Source of the DNA: Candidatus Velthaea sp.
GTDB taxonomy: Bacteria > Vulcanimicrobiota > Vulcanimicrobiia > Vulcanimicrobiales > Vulcanimicrobiaceae
Reading direction: 5' to 3'
DNA: 25,377 nucleotides
Assembly (NCBI GenBank): GCA_050012475.1
Contig: JBEKHC010000078.1
Location: forward strand, 1-25,377
How positions within the stretch are numbered: position 1 is the stretch's first letter; each line of letters starts with the position of its first letter. The position numbers were made by a program, and so were the translations under genes. The notes under the pieces are model-generated. The model did no database searches and had not been told where the DNA came from. It saw only the letters and a list, made by a program, of their open reading frames with translations. This document shows, one piece after another, positions 1,066-19,823 of the stretch.

Positions 1066-1095
1066 CTCCAATCTTTCTACATCGACAGCATGAAA

Positions 1096-1424
1096 CGCTA
1101 GCGGGGACGCGCTATTGCGTAAGCTTGCGGTGCTGCTGTGCGCGTCGGCGACGGAGCCGGGCGATATCGTTGCGCCCAATGAAGGCGATGAGTTTTGCGT
1201 GGTGTTGGTGGATGCGGAGAAGTCGCGTGCCATCGAGCGTGCGGAACGATTGCGGGCGAGCATCGCGGAAAGGAACTTCAGCGGATTGCACGCGCCTATT
1301 GCGGGAAGAGAAGACGTGCAAGAAGACCGGCCGCAACGGCGTTTCCTTTTTCGGCGTCGACGCATCACTCGTTCGCGGCGACGGCGCTACCGATGAGCGT
1401 TCCGCTGATCGACGACGCGAGTAA
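1096..1424 (+). pseudogene. GGDEF 3' fragment, copy 1 (most decayed of the long copies)
   Basis: ASGDALLRKLAVLLCASATEPGDIVAPNEGDEFCVVLVDAEKSRAIERAERLR; GGDEF has become EGDEF. Relative to copy 2 it lacks 95 bp (equivalent to 5210-5304). It ends [37 protein letters not shown]. Confidence 0.9.
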
Positions 1425-1497
1425 AGAATACGCCCGACCAACGAACGACAGCAGGGTTCATTTCCAATTATACCTGTCGGAGACGCTGCGCGGTCAT
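1425..1497 (+). repeat. Conserved tail downstream of the GGDEF fragment
   Basis: CCGACCAACGAA...AGACGCTGCGCGGTCAT matches 5420-5490. Confidence 0.7.
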
Positions 1498-1668
1498 CCC
1501 CAAGGCGCTGATGCGGCCGTTGCGATTCCTTGATCGCGTTGCCGATGACTACGTCGGCTAGGCGGGTTATTGGAGCGCGTCTGTCGAGTCTTAGCACACT
1601 CGGCGCCGCCTTCGCCGCGCACCGTTGGTGGTCGACGGGATGCGGCCGAATTTGGAGAATCAGCGTCG

Positions 1669-2062
1669 ATGCCTATCGATGAAGTGCTGGCTGCGCGTGC
1701 GCAGCGAATTGACCGACCGAACCGAAATCACCGAACGACGGATGTTCGGCGGCTTGGCGTTTTTAGCGAACGGCCAGATTCTCGTTGCCGTCAGCCGTAC
1801 GGGCTCGTTGCTCGTACGCTTGGAATCGGCGCAAGAGCGTGACGCGCTACTGGTTCAGCACCACGTCAGTCCGATGATCATGGGCGCACGCGTCGTCGAG
1901 CGCTTCGTTTACGTTGATCCAGCAGCGCTCGCATCGACCGCACAACTCCGCGAATGGATCGCGCGAGGCTGGACGGCTCTGACTGCATCTGCTGCCAAAC
2001 GGTCGCCGGCGCGCAAGCGGAAGGCTCCTCGAAGCCGGCCATTTACGGCCAGCCGTCGATGA
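1669..2062 (+). pseudogene. TfoX/Sxy N-terminal domain family protein with an early frameshift
   Basis: GGAG RBS, then MPIDEVLAAR in one frame, continuing VRSELTDRTEITERRMFGGLAFLANG...LLVRL...LREWIARG in another. Consistent with loss of 2 bp in the GCGCG run near 1693-1697. Confidence 0.8.
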
Positions 2063-2200
2063 AGTACGCCGCCTGTCCGGTGGTAAACGCCGACTTGCCC
2101 TCGACCTGCAAGGTGATCACTTCGCTGGCCTTCCGAGGTTCGCCCGGTCGCCCAAACGGAGCGTTGGACGATCGCCGTTCGTCCGTCGGTGTCATCGATG
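2043..2200 (-). pseudogene. Possible degenerate SDR C-terminal remnant
   Basis: PFGRPGEP...SAFTTGQAAYFIDGWP resembles the SDR C-terminal pattern PxGRxGxP...SxFxTGQxxxIDGG. No upstream SDR motifs are recognisable. Confidence 0.35.
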
Positions 2201-2440
2201 AGGCGTTGCGCCGATAGTGGCATGTCGCTGCGCTTGCAAATCGGCTGCGGACGCACTGGCGCTGAAGTATCGGGCTTTTACGGACGCTGCAAAGTTGAGG
2301 CGTTCGCGATAATTTCGCGGCAAGCCACCACGTACGCAAGGGCCAGATCTTCCGCATTGCCACCAAACCGCTGCCCATCCAAATCGCTGAGCGATGGCCA
2401 TAAAAAATGTATCAACGTAATCAAGCAGACGACTTAGCTC

Positions 2441-2484
2441 GTGGTTCCTCTGCGGCGATGGCGAAGTGACGCAGCCCGGTCGAT
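2441..2484 (+). repeat. Orphan copy of the GGDEF-downstream tail
   Basis: GTGGTTCCTCTGCGGCGATGGCGAAGTGACGCAGCCCGGTCGAT aligns with GTTCGTTCCACTGCACCGATGACGGCGAAGAGACGCAGCGCGGTCAT (5444-5490). Confidence 0.6.
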
Positions 2485-2781
2485 CCGGAAATGACCCTCC
2501 TTGCAACGCTTGACAGGCGTCGGCGCGCTCTGCAGCGCGATCTTTCGAGCGGGCGGCAGTCGTCTGCTCGAACGGCATCGGTCGCTGCTTGCGCGATGCG
2601 AGTGCCATGCGAGTGCCGCGCGATCTTCGCCTGCAACGGAGGCAGACCAGTCGACCTTTGCAAAGCTTTGCCGAGCCCCTCTGGTTGCAGGTTGCAAGGA
2701 AGTCAGCGGCTAAGCGGCCGTTTCATCGACCTTCGGGATACAGTTACCGATGGTCGTCGGTGATGGTTGCCGGAGGTCGTC

Positions 2782-3654
2782 GTGAAGCGCCTTTGTCTTG
2801 CAGCATTGTTTTTGCTTCCGATCTTGGTTTCTTGCGCCGGAGGCAGCGGCACCACACCTGGGCCCGTGCCGCAGAAGACCGTCACGACGGACGCGCGAGT
2901 GAGTGGCGCATTGACGGTAACCGCGACCGCGGCCACACTTCAAGCCGCTGAAGCGATCGCTCAGGGCCACGCTTCATCGTTTCCGCAGGCCAAAGACAAC
3001 GACGACGGCATTAGCGTGTATCCGAAATCGCTCACCTTCACTTCGCGGCATTCGCAAACGGTGACCGTCAAGGTTCATGAGGCGACGAAGGTGTTTGCGG
3101 GCTCCGAGGACAGTCGGGTGGCGACCGTGTCGCCGTCCGAGCAACGGGTTCGCAACTCCGACGGCGGATCGCTGACATTCAAGATCAAGCCGCGCACGGA
3201 CGATCCGGGCGCGACCCTGGTCTGCTTCCTGACCGCGGAATGGCACTTCGGCTGCGTCGAAGTCCGGATCGGAAGCGCAGTGCCGTCGCCGTCGCCGTCG
3301 CCCCCCGTGCCCTTCACGTTCAACCCGCCCTCGCCGCTCCATTTGGCGGGAGACGGCTTCACGACGGTAGCGGTTTCAGAGGCAAGCTACAGCGGACAAT
3401 TCAGCGTCACCGCCTGCAGTATCGCCTCGAGCGCCGGCGGATCGTGTGCAACGTACAAAAATGGTTGGGCCTGCACTGCGGTCGGCGCCGCAACGGCGAT
3501 TATGGTTCAATTTTATCCGGCCTCCGGCGGGACCACGGATACGACCTTTGATGCCGCGGTTGCCGTCGGCCCGTCTCCACCGAGCGTGAGCTGTCGGTTC
3601 ACGCTGGAGGATGCAAACGGGCACACTGCGATGTACACGATAAACGCCCCGTAG
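2782..3654 (+). CDS. Hypothetical lipoprotein, beta-rich/Ig-like modules with a Pro-Ser linker
   Basis: GGAGG RBS at 2772-2776; MKRLCLAALFLLPILVS-C lipobox; PSPSPSPP linker; several Cys pairs. Confidence 0.75.
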   Translation: MKRLCLAALFLLPILVSCAGGSGTTPGPVPQKTVTTDARVSGALTVTATAATLQAAEAIAQGHASSFPQAKDNDDGISVYPKSLTFTSRHSQTVTVKVHEATKVFAGSEDSRVATVSPSEQRVRNSDGGSLTFKIKPRTDDPGATLVCFLTAEWHFGCVEVRIGSAVPSPSPSPPVPFTFNPPSPLHLAGDGFTTVAVSEASYSGQFSVTACSIASSAGGSCATYKNGWACTAVGAATAIMVQFYPASGGTTDTTFDAAVAVGPSPPSVSCRFTLEDANGHTAMYTINAP

Positions 3655-3790
3655 CAGTCGGAGCATCGCAACCGCGCGGAAAGGTCCGAATCTGCGGATG
3701 CGCCCGAAGCTCTGCGCTGCGCGCCGGTCAAGCCGGTCATACTGCGAAAAACATCGGACGTCCTGATGCGGCTGCCGAGCGCGAAGGGCG

Positions 3791-4378
3791 CTAGACCGCG
3801 CCGACGGTCTGCTTCCAGCGCGCACAGACGCCGCGCAGCAGCGACGGATAGACAACGAGTTTTCGGAACGGATCGATCAGCGCCATGTAGACCGCTGTAA
3901 GCCGGCCGACACTGCGCACGTAGACGGCAAAATAGAAACGATAGGTGCTCGCCGTTTCAACCAGGGCGCTCAGCGCAGCGGCGTGGGCGGTGCTATTGAT
4001 CAGCTCGACCAACTGTTCGTTTTCGAACCGGTATACTACGCGGAAGAGCCCGTCGCGCCGGCCCGCCGGCAAGAGCGACCTCGTCCGATCCGCGACCGTC
4101 AGCCGATCTGCGAACGTTTCGGCACCGGTCGTCGTGGAGGGTGCACGATCCCAACCGAAAAGCCGGCCGATAAAAAAGCGCACATTCAACAATGCGCCGA
4201 CAACCAGTGAGGGCGTGAACACAGGCCCGCTCGCGACTCGAAGAAATTCGTCGAGCGTGATGCCGCGGCGTGAGCGCGGCAGATCGATCACCCATGCGTC
4301 GTGAAGCGGCACGCCCGCGAGAAATGCATGTACCCGCAATGGAAGCTCTTCGAACTCTTGCGCCGAAATCCGCGGCAC
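3791..4378 (-). CDS. DUF2867-like domain protein
   Basis: Probable GTG start at 4378 (MPRISAQEF...). LHDAWVIDLP, LFRVVYRFENEQLVELINSTAHAA and YMALIDPFRKLVVYPSLL resemble the DUF2867 pattern. Confidence 0.7.
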   Translation of the reverse strand: MPRISAQEFEELPLRVHAFLAGVPLHDAWVIDLPRSRRGITLDEFLRVASGPVFTPSLVVGALLNVRFFIGRLFGWDRAPSTTTGAETFADRLTVADRTRSLLPAGRRDGLFRVVYRFENEQLVELINSTAHAAALSALVETASTYRFYFAVYVRSVGRLTAVYMALIDPFRKLVVYPSLLRGVCARWKQTVGAV

Positions 4379-4826
4379 GGCAACTGCCCCCTGAGTCCTG
4401 TATTGCTCTGGTATTCGAGCAGAATCTGCGGTTCCCCACGTTGATCGCACATCGTCCGCAAACCGCCGCATTGCCTCACCAATCACGTCCTCGTAAAGCT
4501 GCGAATGCGCGTCGGCATCTCGAAAACCTTCACGAAGCTGATCCGCGTATCCCATAAATCCGTTCCGAAAAGAAGGGCGGAATACCGGTCGACGAGCTGC
4601 ACGCCGTTCACGGGGCGGGAACGACATACGACTCGATGGGCAGTTGGAAGAAGTGAGGGAGGCGAGCGCGCGATCCAGTTCACCGAATACGACACCAGTT
4701 TCTCGCGAACCATGGCGTAGTGTCTTGGCCTCCGGCTCGACGTTTCGGGATCGTACGAGAAGCTCCCCGAGAGAAGCCGAGCGAACCGGAGTTTCTCTTT
4801 AGGAGCACCAGGGGCGCCACCGATAG

Positions 4827-4953
4827 GCTTGCGATTTCCGGCAAAGGCACTTCGAGATTAATCGGGCCATACTCGTGCCTCGTGGGACCCTTGGGGGTTC
4901 ACGGAGGGTGCCGGGTCTTCGGCAAGCGTTGTGCGCACTTGGAAGTTGTCTAC
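4827..4953 (+). repeat. Putative integrative-element end/att arm joined to the GGDEF fragment
   Basis: Roughly colinear with 14014-14140. By hand count about 47/58 identity in the first block and 25/26 in the terminal GTTGTGCGCACTTGGAASTTGTCTAC. Confidence 0.75.
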
Positions 4954-5409
4954 CGCTTTAAACGATGGAATGACAACTACGGCCATGCCAGCGGGGATGC
5001 GCTTTTGCGCGCGCTTGCGGCGTTGTTGCGCGCCGCGGGGACCGAGCCGGGCGATATCGTGGCGCGCAATGGGGGCGATGAGTTCTGCCTGGTATTTGCC
5101 GAAACGGAAAAGTCACGTGCCATCGAGCGTGCGGAACGGTTGCGCGCAAGTATCGCCGAGGCGGACTTCAGCGGACTGCACGCGCCAACGGCGGGAAGAG
5201 AAGAAGTACGGATCAACGCGTCGATTGGTGTTGCGTGCTTCCCGGTTGATGCGCAATCGCCGGAGACATTGTTGGAAAAGGCCGACGAGGCAATGTATCA
5301 CAGCAAGAAAACCGGCCGCAACGGCGTTTCCTTTTTCGGCGTCGACGCGGCACTCGTTCGCGGCGACGGCATTGTCGAAGAGCGTTCTGCTGATCGACGA
5401 CGCGAATGA
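4954..5409 (+). pseudogene. GGDEF (diguanylate cyclase) 3' fragment, copy 2, open reading frame
   Basis: RFKRWNDNYGHASGDALL...ARNGGDEF...ASIGVA...LLEKADEAMYHSKKTGRN. The first beta strand and DxD acidic residues are replaced by the unrelated HLEVVY. Confidence 0.92.
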
Positions 5410-5490
5410 AGCAGAGGCGCCGACCAACGAAACTGCAGCGAAAGTTCGTTCCACTGCACCGATGACGGCGAAGAGACGCAGCGCGGTCAT
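5410..5490 (+). repeat. Conserved tail downstream of the GGDEF fragment
   Basis: Similar to 1425-1497, 2441-2484 and 18413-18463. Confidence 0.7.
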
Positions 5491-5739
5491 GCGATAAACT
5501 CCGTACGCGGAACGATGTACGGAGCATGTACGAGATCATTTCGCGTGAGTGGATGGGCTCGTTAGAATCAAAGAATCGCGCCCATGTCGCCTGGGTAGTT
5601 GCTTTCGGTAGCGATGTGGTGCCAACGCGACCATAGAATTCATTATGTGCGTCCCAGACCGGCAGCCATCGGTCGAAGTCTTGTGGAGTGACGGAGCGAA
5701 CCCGAACACGATTCGACCGCCAAATCTACCTGGGCGCCG

Positions 5740-6065
5740 AGTCGCGACCGTAGGCGCAAAAGTTCTCCAGAGCCGCGCTAGCAGCGCTGCGCGGCCGCGA
5801 TGCACGACGCGATTGCGGCGCCGAGCGCATCATAGGTGGGCCGGCTCCGAACCGTAATCGCGGCGTCCGTGCAGGCCAGCCCCGCATACGCCGAGTTCGA
5901 GCGGACGCATCAGCGTGAGCCGCAGGGCAACGTGAAACCAATCGAGGACGTGCTCTGCCTGCGAGCTCATGCGCATCCGGATGTTGCGAACGGTGTTGCC
6001 GCCGTCGGAGAGAAAAACAAGCTGCCGATTCATTGGAAAGCTCTGCGACGCGAGCGGTCGCAGTG
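5740..6065 (-). mobile_element. ISKra4-family (IS256/Mutator-related) transposase internal fragment, degenerate
   Basis: LASQSFPMNRQLVFLSDGGNTVRNI...AEHVLDWFHVALRLTLM matches the ISKra4 FLSDGG...LDWFH region. Weak continuation (LENFCAY) to about 5740. Confidence 0.75.
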
Positions 6066-6071
6066 GCGATA

Positions 6072-7457
6072 TTAGCACTTAGGGAGATGGAATTCCACGG
6101 CCAAGCCGCCCAGCGAAGTCTCTTTATATTGCATGCTCATATCGGCGCCGGTTCGGCGCATGGTGTCGATGACGCGGTCGAGCGAGACGTAATGAGGCTG
6201 TTCGGTATCCATGGCCAACCGTGCAGCCGTAAGTGCTTCGACGGCAGCCATCGCGGTGCGCTCGATACACGGAATCTGGACGAGCCCCCCAATCGGATCG
6301 CAGGTCAGTCCGAGCATGTGTTCCATCGCAATTTCGGCGGCGCTGGAGATCTGCTCGGCTGTCCCGCCCATAGCCGCGACGAAACCGCCGGCGGCCATCG
6401 ATCCTGCCGCGCCGATCTCTCCTTGGCAACCGACCTCCGCGGCGGCGATCGACGCATTACGCTTATAGAGCGTACCGATGGCGGCAGCGGTTAGTAGGAG
6501 ATCGAACGTCCCCTGCTCGGTGGCGTGCTGACAGAAGTTCTCGTAGTACGCGAGCACCGCGGGAATGACGCCGGCCGATCCCAACGTCGGCGCCGTCACC
6601 GATCGGCCGCCCGCGGCATTCTCTTCTCCGACGGCGATTGCATAGAAGCTGATCCAATCCACGACGGCTAACGGATCGTCGAGCGAAGATCCCTCGAGGG
6701 CCTCGAGTCGCTTATACAGTTCCGGCGCGCGCCGGCGGAGATTCAGTCCGCCGGGTAGGACGCCTTCATGCGTTTTTCCGGCGTCGATGGAACCACGCAT
6801 CGTGGTGAGGATGAGCCGCAAACCGGCTGTGATCTCGGCATCGCTTCGCCAGCAGCGTTCGTTCGCCAACATCAGATTGGCGATGCTCAAGCCGGCCGTG
6901 TCCGCCATGACCAGCAATTCGGCGGCTGAGGCGAAGTCGTACGTCGCGGCTGCTCTTTGTTTTGCCAGCTGCTTGCCCAGCAGCTCTTGCTCGGTGACGA
7001 CAAAACCGCCGCCGATCGAGAAATAGACTTGCTCGGCAAGCACGGTTCGATCGACGCCGTACGACGTGAAGCGAATTGCGTTCGATGCGCCCGGGAGTGT
7101 CTTCCCGCGCCAGAACACCAGGTCGACCGGCTCGTCGAACGCCACCGCGTACTTGCCGAGCAGCTTGATGGACTTGCGCGTCTGAACGGCCGCGATGAGC
7201 TCACCGATTGCAGCGGGATCGACGGTGTCAGGCTTTTCACCCATCAACCCCAGCTGGATCGCGCGATCGGTGCCGTGACCCAGGCCGGTGAGGGCGAGCG
7301 AACCGAACAATTCGCACGAAATCCCCCGAACGTCGGCGATGATCCCCTGCTCTTCGAGACCATGGGCGAACAACGCGGCCGCCACCATCGGCCCAACCGT
7401 GTGGGAGCTCGATGGGCCGATACCGATTTTGAAGATATCGAAGACGCTATTTGCCAT
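6072..7457 (-). CDS. sdaA: L-serine ammonia-lyase, Fe-S dependent, single chain
   Basis: [72 protein letters not shown]. Confidence 0.97.
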
Positions 7458-7463
7458 CGCTAT

Positions 7464-8133
7464 TCATCCTTGGAAAAAGCTGGACGGTGCCGCGTGCGCA
7501 GCGACCGCCGGCGCGCTGTAGATGCGCGTGAATCGAAGCCCCAGAGCGGTCAAGATCGTATAGCCGATCGCACTCGAGCGAGCCGCGAGATCGTCCACAC
7601 TGATCTGGCCGCCGAGGACTTCCGCCATCGTCGCCGCATGCAGCAGTTGCTCGGGTACGTCGGTGGCATCGAGCACGGTGAGGTCCATCGACGTGCGCCC
7701 CACAAACGGGCACCGATAGCCTGCGACGATCGCTTCGGCGCCGGATGTGGTGCGACCGTCGGCGGCCCCGACAGCAACGGGAGACCCGTCGGCACAGCCC
7801 AGACTCAGCGTCGCAAGGTGCGACGGGCGCTTCGTCGTCCAGTGGGCATTGTAGCCGACGGTCTCGCCGGCTTTGATCGAGCGCACTTCCAAAATCCGCA
7901 CGCGCAAGGACAACGCCGGCTTCATTCGGATTGGGATGACCCGGTGTCGGATTGCCGCCGTAAAGTGCGAAACCCGGGCGAACCAGATCGTAGAAGGGGC
8001 GGCTGGCAAGGAAAATGCCGGACGAATTCGCGAGGCTCGCCTCGACCGTGCGGTCGAAGTAGCCGCGCAGTTCCTCGAATTGCGCGATCTGATGGTGATT
8101 GCCCGGATTATCCGGCTCTTCCGCTGCGAACTC
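7464..8133 (-). pseudogene. alr: Alanine racemase, 5'-truncated and frameshifted
   Basis: SLANSSGIFL...YDLVRPGFALYGGNP, a +1 A at 7925/7926, then MKPAL...GETVGYNA...GCADG...GRTSMDL...IGYTILTALG. No AVVKAxAYGHG PLP-lysine region is found upstream. Confidence 0.9.
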
Positions 8134-9078
8134 ACACTCCGTGCCGCCCTCGAGTTCGAGCCGATTCTTGTCCGTCACCACCCGCGAGGCGAACGGCCAC
8201 GAAGTCGTCCTGATTGGCCAATCCTTGAAAATTTTTTTGAACTGCCGATCACGGGGCGCAAGCCGTACTCCATATACAGCATACAAGCGCGACGCTGTCG
8301 CGCGCTAAACCATTGAGAACGTAGATCGTCGCGTGCGGAACAATTGTTCGTCGCACGCACTACATTGGTCATCGCACCTGCTCCCCAACCATTTTCGCAC
8401 CGTGCCGACATGGCCCGACGCATGTTCAACGAGTCCCTGGAGTGCCAAGATTAACGTGATGGCCGAATTTCGGTGCCAAGCTTGACCATCGCACCAAGCG
8501 GGCAAGCGACGCAGCAGTTACGTCTTTCGAGTGACCGTAATCCCCGCGTTTCGAGAGTCTAGCGCAGCCGCGGGTGAGCCGGTATCGTGAAATACATGGA
8601 ATTAATCTTCGTCCGCACCTCTCCCGATGACGGCCACCAGATCGCTTTCAAGGCGAAAGCAACTCAATGAGCTCTTGGGGTCTACTCACTTAAATATAAG
8701 ATCGCGATAGCAGCAGGACGTTACAACCTGTTGGGACGTTTCTCGCCAGAGCATTTTGCCGGGGACCTGCAGATACTGAGAGCTACGTACGAACTGCCAA
8801 TAAACAGTAAACAACGACCCTTGCATACGAGCCGGAGAGCGACCCCACCCAAAAGACATCTCAGTTTGCTCTTCGCCAAGTTTGTCACAGAGCGGACGCA
8901 ACTAAAAAATGGCCTACCGGCCTACTTAAATTTCAGATAAGCAACGGATACGATCGAAAACGGCGCCGTTCCATGAATTTAACGGTACCAACAAAAGTTC
9001 AACTGCTGTAGACTCGGGCGACGGCGCGAAAGAAAGTTCTGCCAGCATGCCGCGGGCAAGAAAATATGGTTCAACTCG

Positions 9079-9453
9079 ATGCAGGTCGTCGACACGAGTG
9101 GCGCTCCCAGGGCAATCGGCCCGTACTCGCAGGCAATCGTCGTGGATGGGTTTCTTTTTACATCCGGACAGATTCCGCTCACGCCAAGCGGTGATGTAGT
9201 CGCGGCCGACATTGAGGCACAAACGGACCAGGTCTTGAGCAATCTCGCGGCGGTGATCGCCGCCGCCGGCGCATCGCTCTGCGACGTGGTCAAAACGACG
9301 GTATTCGTCATCAATCTGGACGACTTTGCGCGCCTCAATGCTGTGTACGAACGTCACTTCGGCTCGCACAAACCCGCCCGCTCAACCGTGCAGGTCGCAC
9401 GCTTGCCGCGCGACGTCTTGGTGGAGATCGAATTCATCTGTCGCCTGCCTTAG
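9079..9453 (+). CDS. ridA: RidA family reactive imine/enamine deaminase
   Basis: APRAIGPYSQA, SGQIPL, VVKTTVF, KPARSTVQVARLP, VEIE. Confidence 0.95.
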   Translation: MQVVDTSGAPRAIGPYSQAIVVDGFLFTSGQIPLTPSGDVVAADIEAQTDQVLSNLAAVIAAAGASLCDVVKTTVFVINLDDFARLNAVYERHFGSHKPARSTVQVARLPRDVLVEIEFICRLP

Positions 9454-9495
9454 GCGCAACATAGCGCGTCAGGGAAGCTGAAAAGGGAACGGACT

Positions 9496-10917
9496 ATGGC
9501 TCAGACCAAATTAAAACTTCTGCTAGACGAAGAGCAGCAGCACGAAGGTCAAGACCTGCACCGCGGGCTCAAGGATAGGCACATCCAAATGATCGCTATC
9601 GGCGGAGCGATCGGTGTCGGATTGTTTTTGGGCTCGGCCCGCGCGATAACGAAGGTGGGTCCAGGCTTGGTGGTGTCGTACGCCATCGGCGGTGCGATCA
9701 TTTTCTTAATTATGCGCGCGCTCGGCGAGCTGCTGCTCTACCGGCCGGTTTCAGGATCGTTTGCCACCTATGCCGGAGAGTTTGTCGGGCCATGGGCGGG
9801 ATTCATGACCGGTTGGTCTTACTGGTTTATGTGGGTGGTCGTCGGTATGGCGGAACTCACGGCCGTGGGAGTCTACGTCCACTACTGGTTTCCTGGGGTT
9901 CCCCAATGGGTCCCGGCTCTGATAGCCCTGGGCCTGCTGTACCTCGCGAACCTTATCACCGTGGCGCTCTTCGGGGAACTCGAGTTCTGGTTTGCGCTCA
10001 TTAAAGTCGTCACCATCATCGCAATAATGGTTATCGGCTTGGTGGTCATCGTGTTCCATCTAGGCGCTCTGGGGCCTACGGCAAGCTTCTCCAACTTGTG
10101 GACGCACGGCGGCTTCTTCCCCTTCGGTGCGCTCGGCGTGGTGCTAACGCTGCAGATCGTTATGTTCGCCTACCAAGGTGTGGAACTGATCGGCGTTACT
10201 GCGGGCGAAGCGGAGAACCCGGAGACGGTGCTTCCCAACGCGATCAATAAGGTTATTTATCGGATTCTGATCTTCTATGTCGGCGCGTTGCTGATTATCA
10301 TGTCGCTGGTCGCCTGGAACCAATTGAGTCCCACGACCAGTCCGTTCGTCTACATCTTCACGAAGGTAGGCATCCCTTATGCGGCAATAATCGTCAACTT
10401 CGTCGTCATCACTGCCGCTGCATCGTCGTGCAACAGCGGACTCTTCAGCACGGGGCGCATGCTCTATAGTTTGGCCAAGATCGGGCAAGCTCCACGAGCG
10501 TTCGGCAAAGTTAGCAGCCGGCGCATCCCCGCAACGGGCGTTACCGTGTCAGCCGCGCTTATGCTCATCGGCGTCGCGCTAAACTACATCGTTCCCGCGC
10601 AAGTTTTCGTGTACGTGACGAGCATATCGCTGGTGGGATCCCTGTGGACCTGGGCCCTGATCGTCATCGCCCACCTCGGGTACCGCAAAGCGGTCGCAGC
10701 CGGCGAGGCTCGCGCGGTCTCCTACCGCATGCCCGGATCCCCGTATACCAATTACATCGTGGTCGGGTTTATCGTCCTCGTTGCGATATTCCTGAGCTTG
10801 GATCCGAGCACTCGCGTGGCACTGTATGTCGCCCCCGTGTGGTTCGCCATTCTGGCCATCGGCTATCAGTTCACGAACCGGACCGCGACACCGAAGCCGC
10901 AGTCCAAGGCCGCGTAA
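9496..10917 (+). CDS. APC-superfamily amino acid permease (CycA/YifK-like; substrate not certain)
   Basis: LHRGLKDRHIQMIAIGGAIGVGLFLGS, FGELEFWFALIKV, GVELIGVTAGEAENP, SSCNSGLFSTGRML; about 12 TM segments. Confidence 0.93.
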   Translation: MAQTKLKLLLDEEQQHEGQDLHRGLKDRHIQMIAIGGAIGVGLFLGSARAITKVGPGLVVSYAIGGAIIFLIMRALGELLLYRPVSGSFATYAGEFVGPWAGFMTGWSYWFMWVVVGMAELTAVGVYVHYWFPGVPQWVPALIALGLLYLANLITVALFGELEFWFALIKVVTIIAIMVIGLVVIVFHLGALGPTASFSNLWTHGGFFPFGALGVVLTLQIVMFAYQGVELIGVTAGEAENPETVLPNAINKVIYRILIFYVGALLIIMSLVAWNQLSPTTSPFVYIFTKVGIPYAAIIVNFVVITAAASSCNSGLFSTGRMLYSLAKIGQAPRAFGKVSSRRIPATGVTVSAALMLIGVALNYIVPAQVFVYVTSISLVGSLWTWALIVIAHLGYRKAVAAGEARAVSYRMPGSPYTNYIVVGFIVLVAIFLSLDPSTRVALYVAPVWFAILAIGYQFTNRTATPKPQSKAA

Positions 10918-10926
10918 GGAGCAGTC

Positions 10927-12165
10927 ATGGCCGTTACTTTGTCGCCGAGCGACGCAGTTACCCTCGAAGACGTCGTTGCCGCGCGAGCACGGATCGCCGG
11001 CGGCGTCGTGGAAACCCCGTGCACTCACTCGATTCCGCTCTCCGAATTGTGCGGTGCGGAGATCTTCTGCAAGTTCGAGTACCAGCAGCGCACCGGCAGC
11101 TTCAAGGAACGGGGCGCACGCAACACGCTTCTGCAACTTTCGCCGGAGCAGAAAAAGCGCGGCGCCATTTCGGCCTCCGCCGGGAATCATGCGCTGGGCA
11201 TGGCCTACCACGGCCGCCTTCTAGGCATCCCGATCACCGTCGTGATGCCGCGCTTCGCGCCGTTGATCAAAGTTGCGAACTCGCGCAGGCTGGGCGCGAC
11301 CGTCGTGCTGGAGGGTGACGACCTCGCGCAAGCACGCACATACGCGTATACACTTGCCGCAGAAAAGGGACTGGCTTGGGTCCACGGTTACGACGACGCG
11401 ACGATCATCGCCGGTCAAGGCACGATCGGCCTCGAGATCATCGAACAAGTGGAGGATATCGATGCGGTCGTGGTCGCGATCGGCGGCGGCGGCTTGATCG
11501 CGGGCATCTCACTTGCGGTAAAGTCGCTGCACCCAGACGTCGCCGTGATCGGTGTCGAACCGAAGAACGCCGCTTGCTTTTCCGCGGCACTCGCTGCCGG
11601 AGAGCCCGTCGACATCAAGGTGTTGCCGACACTGGCCGACGGGCTGGCGGTGGCGCGCGTCGGAGCGCGTTCCTTCGCGATTGCGCGCGATCGCGTGGAG
11701 AAGGTCGTCACGGTTGACGAGACGGCGCTGGCTACGGCGATCCTGCGTCACATCGAAGTCGAGAAGATGGTCATCGAGGGCGCGGGAGCCGCGCCGCTCG
11801 CCGCGTTCCTCGCCGGAAAGCTGCCGGAGCTCAAAGGCAAACGCGTCGTGCTGGTGCTTTCAGGCGGCAACATCGATCTCAACATGATCGACCGTGTCAT
11901 CGAGGTCGGGCTGGTGCACGATGCGCGCATCTGCCGCTTTACCGCGGTGATCATCGATCATCCCGGCGGCTTGACGAGCCTCTCCGGGTTGATCGCTGCA
12001 ACCGGTGCCAACATCAAGGAAATCGCGCACGACCGCGTCTTTTCCGGCCCCGATATGTCGGCGGTCCGGGTCGTATGCACGGTCGAGACGGCCGACGCTG
12101 AACACCGCGACCGTTTACTGTCCGCGCTGCGCGCGGCGGGCGTTCAACTCATTCTCGATCCTTGA
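10927..12165 (+). CDS. ilvA: Threonine/serine ammonia-lyase (PLP) with a C-terminal ACT domain
   Basis: KFEYQQRTGSFKERGA (PLP Lys), ASAGNHA, IAGQGTIGLEI, GGGGLIAG, LSGGNID, and ACT-like DHPGGL. Confidence 0.93.
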   Translation: MAVTLSPSDAVTLEDVVAARARIAGGVVETPCTHSIPLSELCGAEIFCKFEYQQRTGSFKERGARNTLLQLSPEQKKRGAISASAGNHALGMAYHGRLLGIPITVVMPRFAPLIKVANSRRLGATVVLEGDDLAQARTYAYTLAAEKGLAWVHGYDDATIIAGQGTIGLEIIEQVEDIDAVVVAIGGGGLIAGISLAVKSLHPDVAVIGVEPKNAACFSAALAAGEPVDIKVLPTLADGLAVARVGARSFAIARDRVEKVVTVDETALATAILRHIEVEKMVIEGAGAAPLAAFLAGKLPELKGKRVVLVLSGGNIDLNMIDRVIEVGLVHDARICRFTAVIIDHPGGLTSLSGLIAATGANIKEIAHDRVFSGPDMSAVRVVCTVETADAEHRDRLLSALRAAGVQLILDP

Positions 12166-12233
12166 AGTCTCGAACCATTACCGTCGCGCAATCAAAGCCG
12201 CGAACTCACCATCGTCTTGGAGGCGAATAAGCT

Positions 12234-13421
12234 ATGACAACCAAGAAGACCGCACTCGTTCGTGAATCCCTACATTGGCCGTCGAATGGCCAGGCGCCGT
12301 CCAACATCAAGATCGGCGTTCCGAAGGAAGTCAAGAACTTCGAGCAACGGGTTTCCCTCACGCCAGCCGGGGTGCGCGAGCTGACGCTGCTCGGACATCA
12401 GGTTCTCGTCGAGCGAAACGCCGCCTCGGGCATCGGCATCTCCGACGACGACTATCGGGCCGTCGGCGCCGATGTGGTCGATAGCGCCGCCGAGGTGTTC
12501 GCCGGCGCCGATCTGATCGTGAAGGTGAAAGAGCCGCAGCCCGAAGAGATCGCGCGGCTGCGCGCCGGCCAAGTTTTGTTCACCTACCTGCATCTCGCCG
12601 CGGACAAGGCGCAGACCGAGGGGCTGATGCGGTCGGGCGCCACCTGCATCGCCTACGAGACCGTCACCGATGCCCGCGGCGCATTGCCGTTGCTTTCGCC
12701 GATGAGCGAAGTTGCCGGACGCATGTCGATCCAAGTCGGCGCGCATTGCCTGGAGAAGGAACAGGGTGGCGCCGGCATTCTGCTCGGTGGCGTGCCGGGC
12801 GTGCCGCCGGCCAACGTGGTCGTGCTGGGCGGCGGCGTATCGGGAACCAACGCCGCGCGTATGGCGGTCGGACTCGAGGCGAACGTCACCATCATCGATC
12901 AGTCGCTGCCGAGGCTCAAGGAACTGGACTTACAGTTCGGCCCGCGCGCCAAGACGCTGTTCGCGACGGCCTTGGCAATCGAGACCGCGGTGCTCGCCGC
13001 GGACTTGGTGATCGGTGCCGTTCTCGTGCCCGGCGCCATGGCGCCCAGGCTCGTCTCACGTGAGATGGTGCGCGCGATGCGACCCGGTTCGGTGCTGGTC
13101 GACATCGCCATCGATCAAGGCGGCTGCTTCGCAACGAGCAAGCCGACCACCCATTCGGCGCCCACGTTCGTCGACGAAGGCATCGTTCACTACTGCGTCA
13201 CCAACATGCCCGGTGCGGTTGCGCGGACCTCGACGTTCGCACTGGAACACGCGACCTTGCCTTTCGTGATCGCGCTGGCCAAGAAGGGTTGGCACCAGGC
13301 GCTTGGGGACGATCCGCATTTGGCGCACGGGCTCATGGTGCACGCCGGGAAAGTGATGCATGCTGCGGTGGCGGAGCAACTCGGGCTGCTTTTCACAGCA
13401 CCGGAGTTGGCACTCGCGTAG
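12234..13421 (+). CDS. ald: Alanine dehydrogenase
   Basis: KIGVPKEVKNFEQRV, KVKEP, FTYLHLAA, PMSEVAGR, VDIAIDQGGCF, YCVTNMPGAVARTST; GGAGG RBS at 12219-12223. Confidence 0.97.
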   Translation: MTTKKTALVRESLHWPSNGQAPSNIKIGVPKEVKNFEQRVSLTPAGVRELTLLGHQVLVERNAASGIGISDDDYRAVGADVVDSAAEVFAGADLIVKVKEPQPEEIARLRAGQVLFTYLHLAADKAQTEGLMRSGATCIAYETVTDARGALPLLSPMSEVAGRMSIQVGAHCLEKEQGGAGILLGGVPGVPPANVVVLGGGVSGTNAARMAVGLEANVTIIDQSLPRLKELDLQFGPRAKTLFATALAIETAVLAADLVIGAVLVPGAMAPRLVSREMVRAMRPGSVLVDIAIDQGGCFATSKPTTHSAPTFVDEGIVHYCVTNMPGAVARTSTFALEHATLPFVIALAKKGWHQALGDDPHLAHGLMVHAGKVMHAAVAEQLGLLFTAPELALA

Positions 13422-14013
13422 GCACGCCCTCGGCTCACTTGCGATAATTCGCACGCCGACAGGCCGCGCGGATCGGCCTCATATCCGGTCTCCGCATCCT
13501 AGGCCAGCACTTTCGGTAACGCCTCTGACGGGCGCCCCGAGGGGCTTGCGCACTCGAGGGAAAGCCCAAGGGTTCCCGCGCCGACCGACCGGTAGTTTTC
13601 AGCCGGGCCATTTCGCGGACATATACAACGATTCCGCAAGCCAGCGGGCAAGGTAGCTGGCAAGCGTATCCGGACTCCTCTGGGCGACAGTTCCTCGATG
13701 TCGTGCCCAGAGGTCGGCAACGTCTCGCCGGAGTTGGGTCTGGGTGGCGGCTCACGGTGCGGCGTTGGCGCTTGTCGTCGAGTCCCCGGGCGGCTCGAGC
13801 TGCGCGGCCCAGAGACCCGAATTCTTATGGAAAGACCGCGGCATTGCCCCAGGGTCGCCATTTGCCGGTACTCACCAGCGGCCCCGGTTGCCGGAGCCAT
13901 AGCCAGTAGTTTCGATAGCCCCGGACATGTGCCCAGAGCACTGAAAGTTGGTCTTCGGGAGTACCACCGATGGCAAGGCGGCCGGACGACTTGGTATCGC
14001 ATGTTTGAATTAC

Positions 14014-14140
14014 GCTCGCGATTGCCGGCGAAGGCACTTCGCAAACAATCGGGTCATACTCGTGTAACGTGCGGATCGCGGGCGGCTCAGAAGATGCCGG
14101 CTTCTCTTGATTGTGTTGTGCGCACTTGGAACTTGTCTAC
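14014..14140 (+). repeat. Second copy of the putative element end/att arm
   Basis: Matches 4827-4953 and abuts the GGDEF fragment at the same base. Confidence 0.75.
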
Positions 14141-14461
14141 CGCTTTAAAAGCTGGAATGACAACGACAGGCATGCCAGCGGCGATGCGCTTTTGAGCGAG
14201 CTTGCGGTGTCGTTGCGGGCTGCGGCGACCGAGCCCGGCGATATCGTGGCGCGTAATGGGGGCGATGAGTTTTGTGTGGTGTTGGTGGACGCGGAGAAGT
14301 CGCGCGCCATAAAACGCGCGGAACGATTGCGTGCAAGTATCGTCGAGGCGGACTTTCGCGGGCTGCATGCGCCGTAGCCAGCGGAGAAGAAGTGCAGATC
14401 AGCGCATCCATCGGTGTCGCGTGCTTTCCGGTTGACGGCGCAATCGCCGGAGACACTCTTG
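14141..14461 (+). pseudogene. GGDEF fragment, copy 3, frameshifted and 3'-truncated
   Basis: RFKSWNDNDRHASGDALL...ARNGGDEFCVVLVDAEKS; -1 frameshift near 14374, +1 near 14437; ends at QSPETLL and is joined to IS66 sequence. Confidence 0.9.
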
Positions 14462-14824
14462 GCTGCATCGAGATCGACTACAATGCCGCCGAACGCGCAT
14501 TGCGCTGCGTGGCGCTTGGGCGCAAGAACTATCTGTTTGCCGGCTGGGATGCCGGCGGAGATCGCGCCGCGGCAATCTACAGCTTATCGGGTACTGCCAA
14601 ACTCGACGGGCACAATCTCGAAGCGTTCCTGCGCGAGGTGATCGCGCGAATCGCTGACCATCCAATTGCGCGGATCAACGAACTGCTGCCCTGGCATCTA
14701 CAGCCGACCACCACTATTGCCCTCGCCGGCAAGGATGCTGCCCCCCAACTCGCACCACCGGTGTGGCCACCTCTCAGTCGTCGCGGTCTATTTGCCGTCA
14801 AGACGGCCTCCAGAAGACGCTTAC
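14462..14824 (+). mobile_element. IS66-family remnant: TnpC C-terminus plus right terminal inverted repeat
   Basis: IEIDYNAAERALRCVALGRKNYLFAG...AAAIYSL...INELLPW. It ends ...AGACGCTTAC at 14824, whose reverse complement GTAAGCGTC is the typical IS66 terminus. Confidence 0.9.
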
Positions 14825-15590
14825 TTTATAACGAGGGTGGGGTGGCGCTCACCGATATCTTCCGCCAATCGAACGGGGGCCGCATCCTCGTTGTAGACTC
14901 GGAGGAACGATCGATGGCGTCTCGCACCTGTGCGGGAGCCGTGAAACTCGCGCCTTTAAGAGCGCGTCGGCGCAGGATGCTGAACCAGCATTCGATCTGA
15001 TTTAGTCAGGACGAGTAGTTCGGCGTGAAGTGAAAATGCACGATCGGATGGCGTTGATGAAGCCAGTGATCGCATTTCGGCTTGTGTGTGTTGAGATGTC
15101 GAGGACGACGTATCTTGCGTCCGCGATGCTCGAACCGTGCCGGATCGCCAAGAGTGAGCCCGCACCCTGGATGGGTAAGGCGAATGGGCGATTACCTTCT
15201 CGCCGAATCGAAGGCCACCTCACGATCGAAGCGTTAAGATTTTGGGATGCGATCGCGAGCACAATGATCCGTTAAGATTCAGGGCCTACTATGGGCGGCA
15301 GAACGATGTCTGCCTAGCCACGATCTATAGCAACAATTGATCCGACACCGCGCAAGGCACTGTCGGCCCTGCTCAGCGTGCAAACCTTATTTGCTCCGTT
15401 TAGGGCGTCAGCGAAAGGACGAACATTGACGAAATCATACCTGGAGGCGTCGAACGAGCGTCAAAGCCGTGTCGCGCTCGCGACTTTGAACGCAGTTCAG
15501 TCGACAGCGCTTGCATCAATTCAGGTTACACTTTCCCTCACCCGTGTCGCTCTAGGCTCGCCCCGATTTGTCGTTCGTGTCATCACCCAG

Positions 15591-15911
15591 CTAACAGCAG
15601 CATTGCCGCGTGAACGCGTCGTCGAGCAGCAAGGCATGCATGTCAAACTTCTTACCGATATAGTCGTCAAACCACCCAATCGGGGGACCCGCGTCGGGAA
15701 CGCGCGGCTCGTTCCCGCCGATGATGAGCTGATCCATCGGCGGAAGGCACAGTCTATCGACAAGCAAGGCGTGCACTTTCGCGAGGCATCGGTTAGCAGA
15801 GGAATCGCAATGGTCGTGAAGTCCGACGATATGCCCTTGAGTCATGAAGAACTCGACATCGACCGTCATGCCGTCACGGGCGATGCCGATGTCGACGGGC
15901 CGATTATCCAT
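15591..15911 (-). CDS. Hypothetical protein (uncertain; an overlapping + strand ORF 15378-15962 is the alternative)
   Basis: Protein-like composition (MDNRPVDIGIARDGMTVDVEFF...); no recognised motif. Confidence 0.25.
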   Translation of the reverse strand: MDNRPVDIGIARDGMTVDVEFFMTQGHIVGLHDHCDSSANRCLAKVHALLVDRLCLPPMDQLIIGGNEPRVPDAGPPIGWFDDYIGKKFDMHALLLDDAFTRQCCC

Positions 15912-17266
15912 GAGATGATCCGTGTTGCGCGCGCCGAAGAGAGGATCAACGGTAGCTGTTGACGGCGCTTTTTGGGTGCGTAACGCTGCAGGCGGCGGCA
16001 AAGTGAGCCGAACGCCGGCGGCCTGCAGACGTAGGGAATCGTGCCGACGATTGCGGCGCGGCGGTGAGTCGATCTGATCTTGCGCACAGCAGAGCTGCTC
16101 GCGAAGACGGCGTCCGTCCGGATTTTAGCGAGTGCGGTTCGTTAGGCCATTGAGCGTCTCGTAGACGGCGCTGAACGGGTGTCCGCTAAGTGCTTATCCG
16201 AGATCGTTTAGGCAAGTAGCCTAACGATTGTACGAACTACGTATTCTGCGATTCGCCAGCATCGCTTCCGTTCAGCAACGGGATTCTGCGAACGCCAACG
16301 GTCATTCTGTTCAACACGAGCTTCCGACGAAGGGGCCGAGCAGGGTCGTTTATCGTACGCAGATCCAAGGGCTCTCCTTCATCGGCGTACCGCCATTGCA
16401 TCATGACACACAGGTGGGCCGGTTGCTCACACGATGTCCAGGGGTAGCGCCGTGTGGATTGGTCTTCGGTGCGCATTCTAGAACGCCGCAGAACGCCGAA
16501 GATTGACGCCGAAGAGAAGATCGGGCGTCAATGAGGGGAATCGGCGCAATAAATAGGGCGCGCCGATGCCCATTTGCTCGCGGAGAAAGAAAAGAGCCGC
16601 CTCAACCCTGCCGTCGAGCATATGCTCATGCAAAACTAGCGAGGACCACTACCTCGTCGGCAGCAGTCTCCGGATGCTTGAATCTCGTCGCACGCTGCGT
16701 ACCAAACATTTCCGCACCTTGAGGGCAAGCTGATTCGCGCAGTCCTTTTTCCCGTGGACGGTCTGCTTTTGGGACGCTCTCCGCACCCGGTCCTTGCGGT
16801 CGCGAAAACCCGGCCCGAGCGATGAGGCGCCAAGAAGGCCCACTTCGCACCTTTGGTCTTAGCTACGGTCAGTCGGCCGATTGGCGCTCGAGATCTCGCA
16901 GCCGAGAAGTGCAGCGAAGCTTTGCGGGCCGAGCTAGCGGAGCACGGCCGAAACGGAAGGCCGAGCGCGAGCTGAACGACGACCTCGCGCACGATGTTCG
17001 CCGCAAGCTGCGCGAGCAAGGCGCCCGCGATATCGCCCGCGAGGCCATTCTCGCAATCGTCACAGGGCTCTGAGTAACGTTTGGCCGGAGCCAAAAGGCG
17101 AAGCAAAGCGTAAACATGAGTTCGAGGACGCGCTCGTGACTGCCGCATGCTATCGGCATACGCTGGCGCTTCAGGCTGCTCAAGCCGCGATCGCGCGAAA
17201 CTGGACCGCAACGCCGGTCGGGCTGGCGGCGATTCGCGAACATCACTACTCGGAGGACAACCGACG

Positions 17267-17425
17267 ATGCGGGCTGCCATGACTGATGACGACGACTATG
17301 AAGACGACGATGAAGACGACGACGCGCAAGCCGACATGCTCGCCGAACTGGAAGAACTCGCCGAACTCGGTCGGCCGACGCCGGTGATTCGAGAGCACCA
17401 CTATGCAGAAAGAGGCCGACGATGA
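17267..17425 (+). CDS. Small, highly acidic hypothetical protein (52 aa)
   Basis: GGAGG at 17252-17256; MRAAMTDDDDYEDDDEDDDAQADMLAELEELAELGRP...; the stop overlaps the next ATG (ATGA at 17422-17425). Confidence 0.5.
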   Translation: MRAAMTDDDDYEDDDEDDDAQADMLAELEELAELGRPTPVIREHHYAERGRR

Positions 17426-18278
17426 GCTATGGAACTGAAGAGCCGGAAGCAACGAGTTGCCGTAGACGATCGAGGCCGGGTGACACGCTTTCCCGACCCT
17501 GCGTTCGGCGCGTGGTGGGGGCAATCGCCGTTCCCTTAGCCCGCGCCCTTGGCTCCATCGACTCCGCCGTCAATCTTTCGATTTTTGTACGCCGACCTCT
17601 CAGCTACTGCGACTGGGTCTGACTCCTCGCGACCGTGCATCATCGACCACGACGTGCGCTTTTCGATGCGGACCAACGCCGTTTTTGGTCGATGCGAGGC
17701 CGCCCAGTTCCCGATGCAAGCTGTTCCTTCGTAAAATGGTCTCGGCCACGGCGGAGCTGCCCTGTCTCGCATAGCGACGTGGCGCGTGTTTGCCTTTGCT
17801 TTTGTACACCAGCTCGGCCCCCGCGATGATAATTCTAACGCGGCTCAATCCCATTCCCCAGAGGATCTCTGTCAACGCTTCAGCCCGTACATCGCCGCAC
17901 GACTGCAAGACTCGATACCGACCGGCCCGCTACGGCCTTTGTCGTCCCGGTCTCTCACCTGTAAGTTCACATCAGGTTTTCTGGCGTACAATAAGTTCCG
18001 CTTCTTGAGGGCACCCCCATATCGCTACGGCGAACGAGAAGGCGCGAGAGCACAACTAGACGTTCACCCTTGTGGCGCAACCCGAACTTACATTTCTCTC
18101 AACATAAGCGCGCTATGGTTGTTGGAAGCAATCCCATCTTTTCGACGCGTGTCAAGTTGACCGAGGTCTGATGAAGGTTCGTCGCCGGGCACGAAAGCCT
18201 GAAGAGCGAGAATTTCGCGCTCAATGGCATGGTCGCGTTATCGTGACGCAATCCCATGACTGATGCGTAGTCGAATGA

Positions 18279-19340
<1,062 letters not shown>

Positions 19341-19823
19341 CGCCGGCGACGGAAGCGCCAATTTTGGCGAACTTCATCAACGCGTTGCCGGTGTCGACCG
19401 TCGACATCTACCCTTGAGCGGTGCGGCGATGGTGTCGGCATTGACCGGTACCGCATCGATCGCTTTGCCGCAACGCGCGGCACCCAGTTATGGGCGAGAC
19501 AGAGCCTGGTTTGCGTCGTTCCGCCGACGACAGTCACGACCCGGTCGCCGTGCCCTGCACCTGAACGAGCATAGGGTTCCACCGGCGACCGTGTATACCG
19601 CTAGAGCCAGTCTCACCGCCTGTCCAGCTTTGTAGTGAACGTAGCCATTCAGCTTGTACGGTGTTCGAAGCGGAACGACTGCGCGCAAAAATCATCGAGC
19701 CGAACGTTGGCGGGCTTCAGGGCCGCTCGTGATCATCGGCCCGTCCGTTGCGGCCCGGGACGTTGCGTGACCCGGCGGCCCCACTTCCCGCCATGACGCG
19801 TCGTAGAGGGACGAAGCCGATAC

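Follow-up and report, generated by a model that had tools for sequence, protein, structure and literature searches.

The window, that is, the whole stretch of DNA analysed here (25,377 nucleotides), is contig C78 of G000, a metagenome-assembled genome of Candidatus Velthaea sp. whose assembly comprised 5.36 Mb in 204 contigs, with a completeness of 93.8% and a contamination of 5.3%. Among species genomes, the loci closest to it carried the labels Vulcanimicrobiota and Ca. Velthaea. The window contained four copies of the 3′ part of a diguanylate cyclase (DGC) gene, all on the forward strand, which were delimited by Pfam and sequence comparison. Copy 1 (1093..1445) had an internal deletion and no recognisable foreign arm. 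Copy 2 (4954..5409) was open to its stop codon, covered positions 41–160 of the GGDEF profile (PF00990) and was 80% identical to the native gene on C127, with 41 synonymous and 21 non-synonymous codon changes. Copy 3 (14141..14462) carried a 1-nt frameshift and was cut off by the C-terminal remnant of an IS66 transposase (14461..14694, forward strand; PF03050, PF13817). Copy 4 (18320..18463) consisted of the last ~90 nt of the DGC gene followed by shared downstream sequence. The post-stop sequence (5410..5490, forward strand) was common to copies 1, 2, and 4 as well as a copy on C40 and was absent from C127 and G003. An isolated piece at 2444–2481 resembled this post-stop sequence and is possibly a fifth, fully decayed junction.

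The copies were separated by cargo units, whose contents were assigned by Pfam. The unit between copies 1 and 2 (1446..4824) encoded a TfoX-N protein, a 295-aa protein without Pfam match and a DUF2867 protein. That between copies 2 and 3 (5410..14011) encoded L-serine dehydratase, part of an alanine racemase, a RidA-like protein, an amino-acid permease, a PLP enzyme and alanine dehydrogenase; no recombinase was found in it with Pfam, and its only matches were short, scattered ones in four relatives. The unit between copies 3 and 4 (14463..18305) was decayed and held IS66 and group II intron remnants (Pfam, Rfam), the latter a D1–D4 fragment on the reverse strand (17737–17955; RF02005, E 4.6e-30), near which no gene for a reverse transcriptase was seen. 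The alanine racemase (7447–8286) and aldo/keto reductase (18512–19361) genes of the cargo were frameshifted or truncated. Short frames at 5833–6078 of the window, which had no Pfam match, and at L004:1861–2088 are presumably pieces of ISKra4-type transposases.

Copies 2 and 3 were each preceded on the forward strand by a long foreign arm (4825..4953, 129 nt, and 14012..14140), a putative end of an integrative element. The first-pass annotation had described 4827–4953 and 14014–14140 as homologous and equal in length, which was borne out: both were 127 nt long and were identical at 88 of 127 positions (69%) in a gap-free alignment. Identity was uneven, with a distal block of ~80% (61 nt), a middle part of 22/52 and a proximal part, adjoining the junction, of 25/26, for which 0 matches were expected from 100 shuffles. 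The further claim that these 26 bp were better conserved than the coding part that follows stood on average (96% vs. 195/233 or 84%) but was not significant from two copies, as 25/26 was also reached by 12 of 208 coding windows of 26 nt; it became convincing with all eight genomic copies, which lay 0–4 nt from the 24-mer of copy 3. Translation of the arms gave HLEVVY and HLELVY where the gene has FVDTD, as had been noted. The arms folded no better than shuffles (z from −0.01 to −1.8), and no Rfam match was found in the copy-2 arm. A weak sigma-70-like promoter on the reverse strand (14139–14110) overlapped the copy-3 half-site.

A 10/12 match to the arm end, previously noticed in front of copy 4, was real. 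With a matrix built from the eight arms of the genome, the 15 nt ending at 18320 (18306..18320, forward strand) scored p = 1.2e-4 per site, which makes it likely that copy 4 is an internally deleted junction, preceded by a remnant of the distal arm part. Upstream of copy 1, the same matrix detected no arm (best p = 0.007). In addition, a word of 17–18 nt, GTGCC(A)CAGAGCACTGAA, occurred upstream of the copy-3 arm (13929–13945) and at C165:3275–3292, where it directly truncated the DGC fragment of C165.

Junctions and the native gene in the genome

The last 24 nt of the arm occurred eight times in G000 (up to 5 mismatches allowed, 0–4 found), distributed over six contigs: two each on C78 and C66 and one each on C40, C165, C183, and C190. 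In all eight cases, the arm end was followed by the 3′ part of one conserved DGC gene, joined at an identical codon, and the junctions within any one contig had the same direction. About 24–30 nt were common to all junctions, and beyond ~40 nt a clear arm likeness was found only between the two window arms (z = 20), the value for C183 and C190 being z = 5. From these alignments, the 125-nt arm is read as the end of one element lineage. Further DGC pieces without arm were present on C78, C66, and C40, with one direction within each contig. The divergence of the fragments was mainly at third codon positions, indicating that they were once working gene ends.

The native DGC gene, which encodes a 5′ domain and GGDEF and follows a Crp-like gene, was located on C127, 90 nt from the contig end. 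At C127:659/660 (L007), a 50-nt gap upstream of the motif broke its frame, representing either a strain variant or an assembly error; contigs of the X1 and X5 runs carried 50 more letters at this gap, and P0036 was the full 397-aa product. In one RNA run, only 0.09 of the words were present. The six junction contigs were joined neither to the native gene nor to priA, and their ends were linked only by C40–C178 and by metagenome overlaps. No joint at an att site was found in the public assembled contigs of five runs, a search that covered assembled contigs only.

The DNA between the junctions was accessory. Over 20 kb of the window, relatives were matched only by the DGC and by short scattered pieces in four of them, and the GC content between junctions was 57–62%, compared with 64% for the genome. 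The cargo near the junctions of C66 (L002) and C190 (L006) included aldehyde ferredoxin oxidoreductase, MoaA, ThiF/cysteine desulfurase and Mrp/NADH-dehydrogenase-like membrane subunits. Profile searches of the six junction contigs gave no PF00589, PF00239 or PF07508 match, and Pfam families of integrases or transfer proteins were not found among 82 scanned proteins, which came from the window, the remaining arm contigs and G003. Neither a large serine recombinase nor a remnant of one was found in G000, G003 or the genomes of L047 and L118. No significant Pfam match was obtained for 16 frames around the arms, and a search of antisense frames gave five weak matches to multi-repeat proteins, of which the four scanned were Ig- or fn3-like and were not recombinases. 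Elsewhere in G000, three tyrosine recombinase matches lay in a row on C179, a layout that we take to be RIT-like.

The same breakpoint in other genomes

All of the 80 orthologous loci held a copy with DxD before (R/H/N/E/Y)FK. Among the matches listed (120 proteins), 99 had DxD, 18 had foreign residues at the same point, one of them being the window's own, and three started later. DxD was found in all 92 homologues longer than 300 aa among the matches listed, and the arm was in frame in none of them. Thus, the arm is foreign to the gene, as the first-pass annotation had held; it had also raised the prospect of full-length homologues with the arm in frame, and the number of these among the matches listed was zero.

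The breakpoint recurred in two other genomes (L047 and L118) as well as in 17 other database proteins. The gene order of L047, in genome G368, was an intact DGC gene, one XRE gene, a related arm, a whole 3′ fragment that was 73% identical to the intact gene, one gene and priA. The DGC gene was close to priA in many relatives, and G001 and many others held one copy there, which represents the empty site. Judged by gene order, L047 corresponds to an island that is accompanied by a displaced fragment and occupies the DGC–priA position of its host. The order of L118 was an intact DGC gene, one DUF4760 gene, an arm with CTTGGAAG in the same register and a decayed fragment. At L035, a unit of ~0.9 kb contained the DGC 3′ end, DUF4160 and DUF2442 genes and an arm. 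A decayed 60-nt DGC piece without arm was also found 6.2 kb downstream of the intact gene in G003 (L029:10754–10813), and G003 probably had such a unit too.

In the database proteins P0005–P0008, four differing 3′ halves were preceded by a near-identical arm of 43 codons, which was a homologue of the two window arms. The arms of P0006–P0008 were identical at 43 of 43 residues, and their 3′ halves were only 81–84% identical. In translation, the copy-2 and copy-3 arms matched the arm of P0006 at 21/43 and 28/43 residues, respectively. The occurrence of one arm on differing 3′ halves indicates that gene halves from different hosts have become linked to one and the same element end.

The search for the arm across metagenomes that had been proposed earlier gave seven matches. 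All of them were near-identical to loci of G000 and are therefore not independent lineages. The exact arm pattern had 0 matches in 185,579 species genomes, and viral contigs gave 0 matches with three patterns and two proteins. Within the 353 genomes of the order, the junction pattern was found in G000, in G368 and, at one mismatch, in two intact genes. A looser junction pattern was useless, as it matched ordinary GGDEF genes in 223 of the 353 genomes. Second DGC matches in nine other genomes were long GGDEF proteins, and the short-frame matches were rejected for G341, G061, and G108 (DxD intact), G009 (plain frameshift) and G330 (contig edge).

The G085 island and the probable crossover point

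When the DGC search (196 of 353 genomes) was crossed with a search for PF07508 (47 of 353), one coincidence, G085, was obtained. In this genome, a 7.4-kb island split the DGC orthologue at the Lys codon of the motif; its cargo comprised a C5 methylase, Vsr, HTH, a small serine recombinase and KTSC. The left part of the gene ended with D-N-F-K and the right part resumed with K-R-V-N-D, with AA common to both. The foreign flanks had a dyad about this AA at 14 of 21 positions, compared with at most 9 at other centres. A large serine recombinase with Resolvase, Recombinase and zinc-ribbon domains started 44 nt from the junction and read into the island, in two frames in the assembly. Its relatives were P0001 (589 aa, full-length; 65% identical), P0002 (57%) and P0003 (46%), none of which has the accession prefix of P0006–P0008. 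The split gene was regarded as the orthologue because its 5′ domain matched and an M48 peptidase gene lay downstream; the Crp neighbour was not found there. G085 was the only split orthologue among those checked in the 353 genomes, with G198, G231, and G246 left out. Among 30 recombinase loci plus G010, a DGC fragment adjoined only in G085, and eleven other serine recombinase loci had no GGDEF frame or clear arm upstream. The first-pass annotation had considered that the arm might never occur near a recombinase; in G085, a serine recombinase lies 44 nt from an att junction at the same motif of an orthologous gene.

It had also proposed that the arm was a site of recombinase binding and crossover, with crossover near ACCGCTTTAAA. 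The crossover position fits, the best estimate being AA in the Lys codon of D-x-D-R-F-K (4960..4961 and 14147–14148, forward strand); the binding and the enzyme are inferred only, and no recombinase adjoins the arms of G000. The G000 arm resembled the half-sites of G085 in three registers, with scores of 21.5/42 at −10, 19.5 at AA and 18.2 at +7 (mean 10.9, sd 4.2), and so likeness alone does not fix the crossover. The window arm agreed with the dyad at 10–11 of 14 positions when shifted 10 nt leftwards and at 8 of 14 when centred on AA, fits that occur genome-wide at frequencies of 1e-4 to 1e-5 and of 5e-3, respectively. TTG occurs at several spacings in the arm, so these matches bear on likeness to the G085 half-sites and not on the position of the cut. 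A matrix of the G000 arms scored the G085 arm at p = 0.024 only.

Codon conservation was more informative. The Phe before the Lys was invariant in the 99 intact proteins and was replaced in 6 of 20 arm-type proteins, whereas the invariant residues from the Lys on deviated in 3 of 120 cases (Fisher p = 3e-4 vs. Phe, for rows that are related). With genomic junctions added, the counts were 9/30 vs. 20/180 (p = 0.01, rows again related). The codons for R-F are thus probably the element's, which favours AA as the crossover. Two other positions were set aside after this result: CG at 4954–4955, which had weak symmetry, and CT at 4950–4951, a possible alternative from the ambiguous register scan.

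The putative att half contributed by the element (P half), which the eight junctions share and which probably includes the 6 nt that read R-F, would be 4929..4959 for copy 2; for copy 3, the half-site together with AA would be 14116..14148 (both on the forward strand, from the arm alignment). The window holds the left half of the dyad only, and its register is ambiguous. The half-site described in PMC3783163 measures 25 bp; the conserved arm is longer, reaching 30 nt from AA. A 14-nt block identical to the right half-site of G085 was found inverted, 30 nt upstream of the C165 arm (C165:3173–3193, L001), as the sole exact copy in G000; no partner site was found for it, and near-matches lay in two promoter regions.

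Proposed stacked islands and competing explanations

Our best reading is that these att junctions consist of an element end and a displaced gene half, left by stacked, gene-restoring islands that now lack an integrase. That the junctions were made by elements is held with high confidence. That the arm is the element-side att half of mobile elements that used a large serine integrase and inserted in a stacked, gene-restoring manner is considered rather likely. An incoming circle would carry the arm, the crossover and its own DGC 3′ half. Recombination at the Lys codon would rebuild a full-length gene with the 3′ half of the newcomer, and the old 3′ half would be pushed to the far end, behind the arm. 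As the target would be rebuilt, a next element could enter at the same point, and units would stack. The integrase genes would later have been lost, or an element missing from the assembly would supply them in trans. The gene would take on another 3′ half whenever DNA between junctions was excised. Against this model, the island of G085 disrupts the gene, and a gene-restoring version was never seen with its integrase. The disrupting element could plausibly have become a restoring one if it was excised aberrantly, together with the right junction and the host 3′ half; the att of the resulting circle would then have comprised the arm and a gene half. According to PMC3783163, serine integrases normally do not recombine product sites; the model therefore needs either an enzyme as relaxed as those of the Ccr/DsiB kind or a gene half that can serve as a P′ arm.

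The histories of the two gene halves bear on this exchange. P0036 and P0059 were identical over residues 2–249, through RFK, and differed from the next codon on. Beyond RFK, the identities were 87% and 70%; the 3′ part of P0036 was identical to that of the gene of G000, and the 3′ part of P0059 resembled copy 3. P0059 contained indel-like stretches and is known from protein sequence only, and the three shared codons would probably be too few for a chimeric join. Among 30 close proteins, the distances of the two halves of the 5′ domain correlated better with each other (rho 0.63) than those of 5′ and 3′ parts (0.18–0.24). A comparison of 5′ and 3′ trees on the genome loci gave no resolution. 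These sequence comparisons are evidence for an exchange of the 3′ half in the working gene.

The same stack could have been built by a tyrosine integrase, in which case the 129-nt arm would be a long attP arm that carries remote binding sites, and restoring the gene would be ordinary for the family. Target restoration and stacking are typical of tyrosine elements (PMC5704250, PMC4383910), the long arm is conserved across samples, and G000 has 14 PF00589 matches. None of the 14, however, was on any of the seven contigs with an arm or DGC fragment, so that no PF00589 gene lay at an island end; just ~24–30 nt are shared by all junctions; and the sole recombinase at the motif, that of G085, is a serine enzyme with half-sites that resemble the arm. 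We consider a tyrosine integrase unlikely.

Homologous recombination without an integrase at the stacking step is similarly improbable. Elements would then only disrupt the gene, and the stack would grow from right junctions of donors (arm, 3′ half and downstream genes) through the ~450-nt DGC part. The only integrase-bearing case, G085, is disruptive, no unit has kept an integrase, and the fragments were interspersed among full-length DGCs of close species in a quick protein tree with mostly open forks, all of which would fit. In contrast, the switch between P0036 and P0059 falls within three codons of the motif and not inside the 450 nt, the DGC fragments were 77–85% identical, which is low for RecA recombination, and no left junction (5′ DGC part plus foreign arm) was found in G000.

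It is very doubtful that the arm encodes a replacement N-terminus of 43 residues and that the fragments are gene duplicates for short GGDEF proteins (catalytically dead modulators) and not att scars. In P0005–P0008, the reading frame extends 43 codons upstream to a Met, which is the codon where the two window arms begin to resemble each other. The Met codon, however, is AGG or ACG in the window, copy 3 has an in-frame TGA in its arm, 10 of 12 differences in the distal 61 nt are at first or second codon positions, the residues of the other junction proteins are unrelated beyond about 10 codons, and several fragments are frameshifted within 30 codons. The equally remote idea of assembly or binning artefacts, to which the 204 contigs, the 5.3% contamination and the position of the native gene 90 nt from a contig end with a 50-nt gap lend some weight, is already largely refuted, as independent metagenome contigs repeated 5 of 8 junctions at 97.7–100% identity, an X1-run contig spanned 4460–5340 with zero differences, and three junction copies lie on C78 with the same layout in L047 and L118.

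Two other origins of the arm were rejected. The 3′ end of a group II intron was rejected because no Domain 5/6 preceded the 3′ exon and Rfam found only the D1–D4 fragment on the other strand. An IS110/IS1111 end with bridge RNA was rejected because the arm folded no better than shuffles and the one IS110 gene on an arm contig was 1.7 kb away behind other remnants.

The proposed stacked, gene-restoring islands have parallels among known systems. SCCmec at rlmH has a repeat under 20 bp at the end of its gene, unlike the half enzyme domain displaced in G000. The closest are the ssrA islands of Dehalococcoides (DsiB/DsiA, CcrB-like serine recombinases; PMC3146451) and cis-mobilizable elements (CIMEs). 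Like the units of G000, the ssrA islands are arranged in tandem downstream of a single-copy gene; a displaced 3′ fragment delimits each of them, immediately preceded by a foreign motif (of 15 bp in the ssrA islands), and 15 islands lack the integration module. They use the tmRNA gene as target, with a repeat of 20 bp, whereas in G000 the target is the middle of a protein-coding gene and the displaced part amounts to ~450 nt (150 codons, GGDEF among them). Their six-gene module was not found in the units of G000. CIMEs and their site-specific accretion (PMC5704250) resemble G000 in that att sites are kept, integration and transfer genes are lost, and elements are stacked at one target; the assembly contained no autonomous element adjacent to the units of G000. 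In that review, gene-sparing integration is tied to tyrosine recombinases at gene ends and serine-recombinase IMEs disrupt their targets, whereas the units of G000 are gene-sparing in our model. The tRNA/tmRNA islands of Islander (PMC4383910) are likewise marked by a displaced fragment but use tyrosine integrases and RNA genes, whereas G000 displaces half an enzyme domain.

The large serine recombinase elements covered by PMC10083194 share with G085 the Resolvase–Recombinase–zinc-ribbon architecture, a dyad att about a 2-nt centre and intragenic insertion. The window units differ from them in having no integrase and, as proposed, in restoring the gene; since the defining gene is absent, they were not filed as autonomous serine-integrase elements. 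The terms 'GGDEF' and 'diguanylate' were absent from the main text and supplements examined of PMC10083194. The literature searched, which included few subscription papers, yielded no report of an element that integrates into a diguanylate cyclase gene. Stacking with displaced fragments is already known; new are the target inside the DxD-x-FK motif of a DGC, the ~150 displaced codons and the evidence for a change of the 3′ half.

The locus is likely a hotspot of gene acquisition in an uncultured soil phylum, with cargo for amino-acid catabolism, tungsten/aldehyde oxidoreductase and toxin–antitoxin functions, and it suggests a target of serine integrases that was absent from the literature searched. 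If a serine integrase does use a site whose right half is host-coding, insertion would be repeatable and leave the gene intact, a departure from the usual rule that the target is disrupted in one round only. Short 'GGDEF proteins' predicted in these genomes would be att scars, and the two halves of the gene would have different histories. More tentatively, an undescribed clade of serine integrases may use Asp-x-Asp-Arg-Phe-Lys of the Eremiobacterota DGC as a self-renewing landing site, at which integrase-free cassettes with a spare catalytic half would stack in an integron-like manner, each insertion or excision swapping the GGDEF half between species and adding or dropping metabolic operons.

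Finally, three related serine recombinases (L190, L191, and L210, of G134, G168, and G098, respectively), which were 34–40% identical to the G085 enzyme, adjoined the same 3′ gene end (…QAADEMLRIANNLQRG), which we take to be flagellar rod-like. The recombinases of L193 and L194 adjoin what is presumably a DprA-like fragment.
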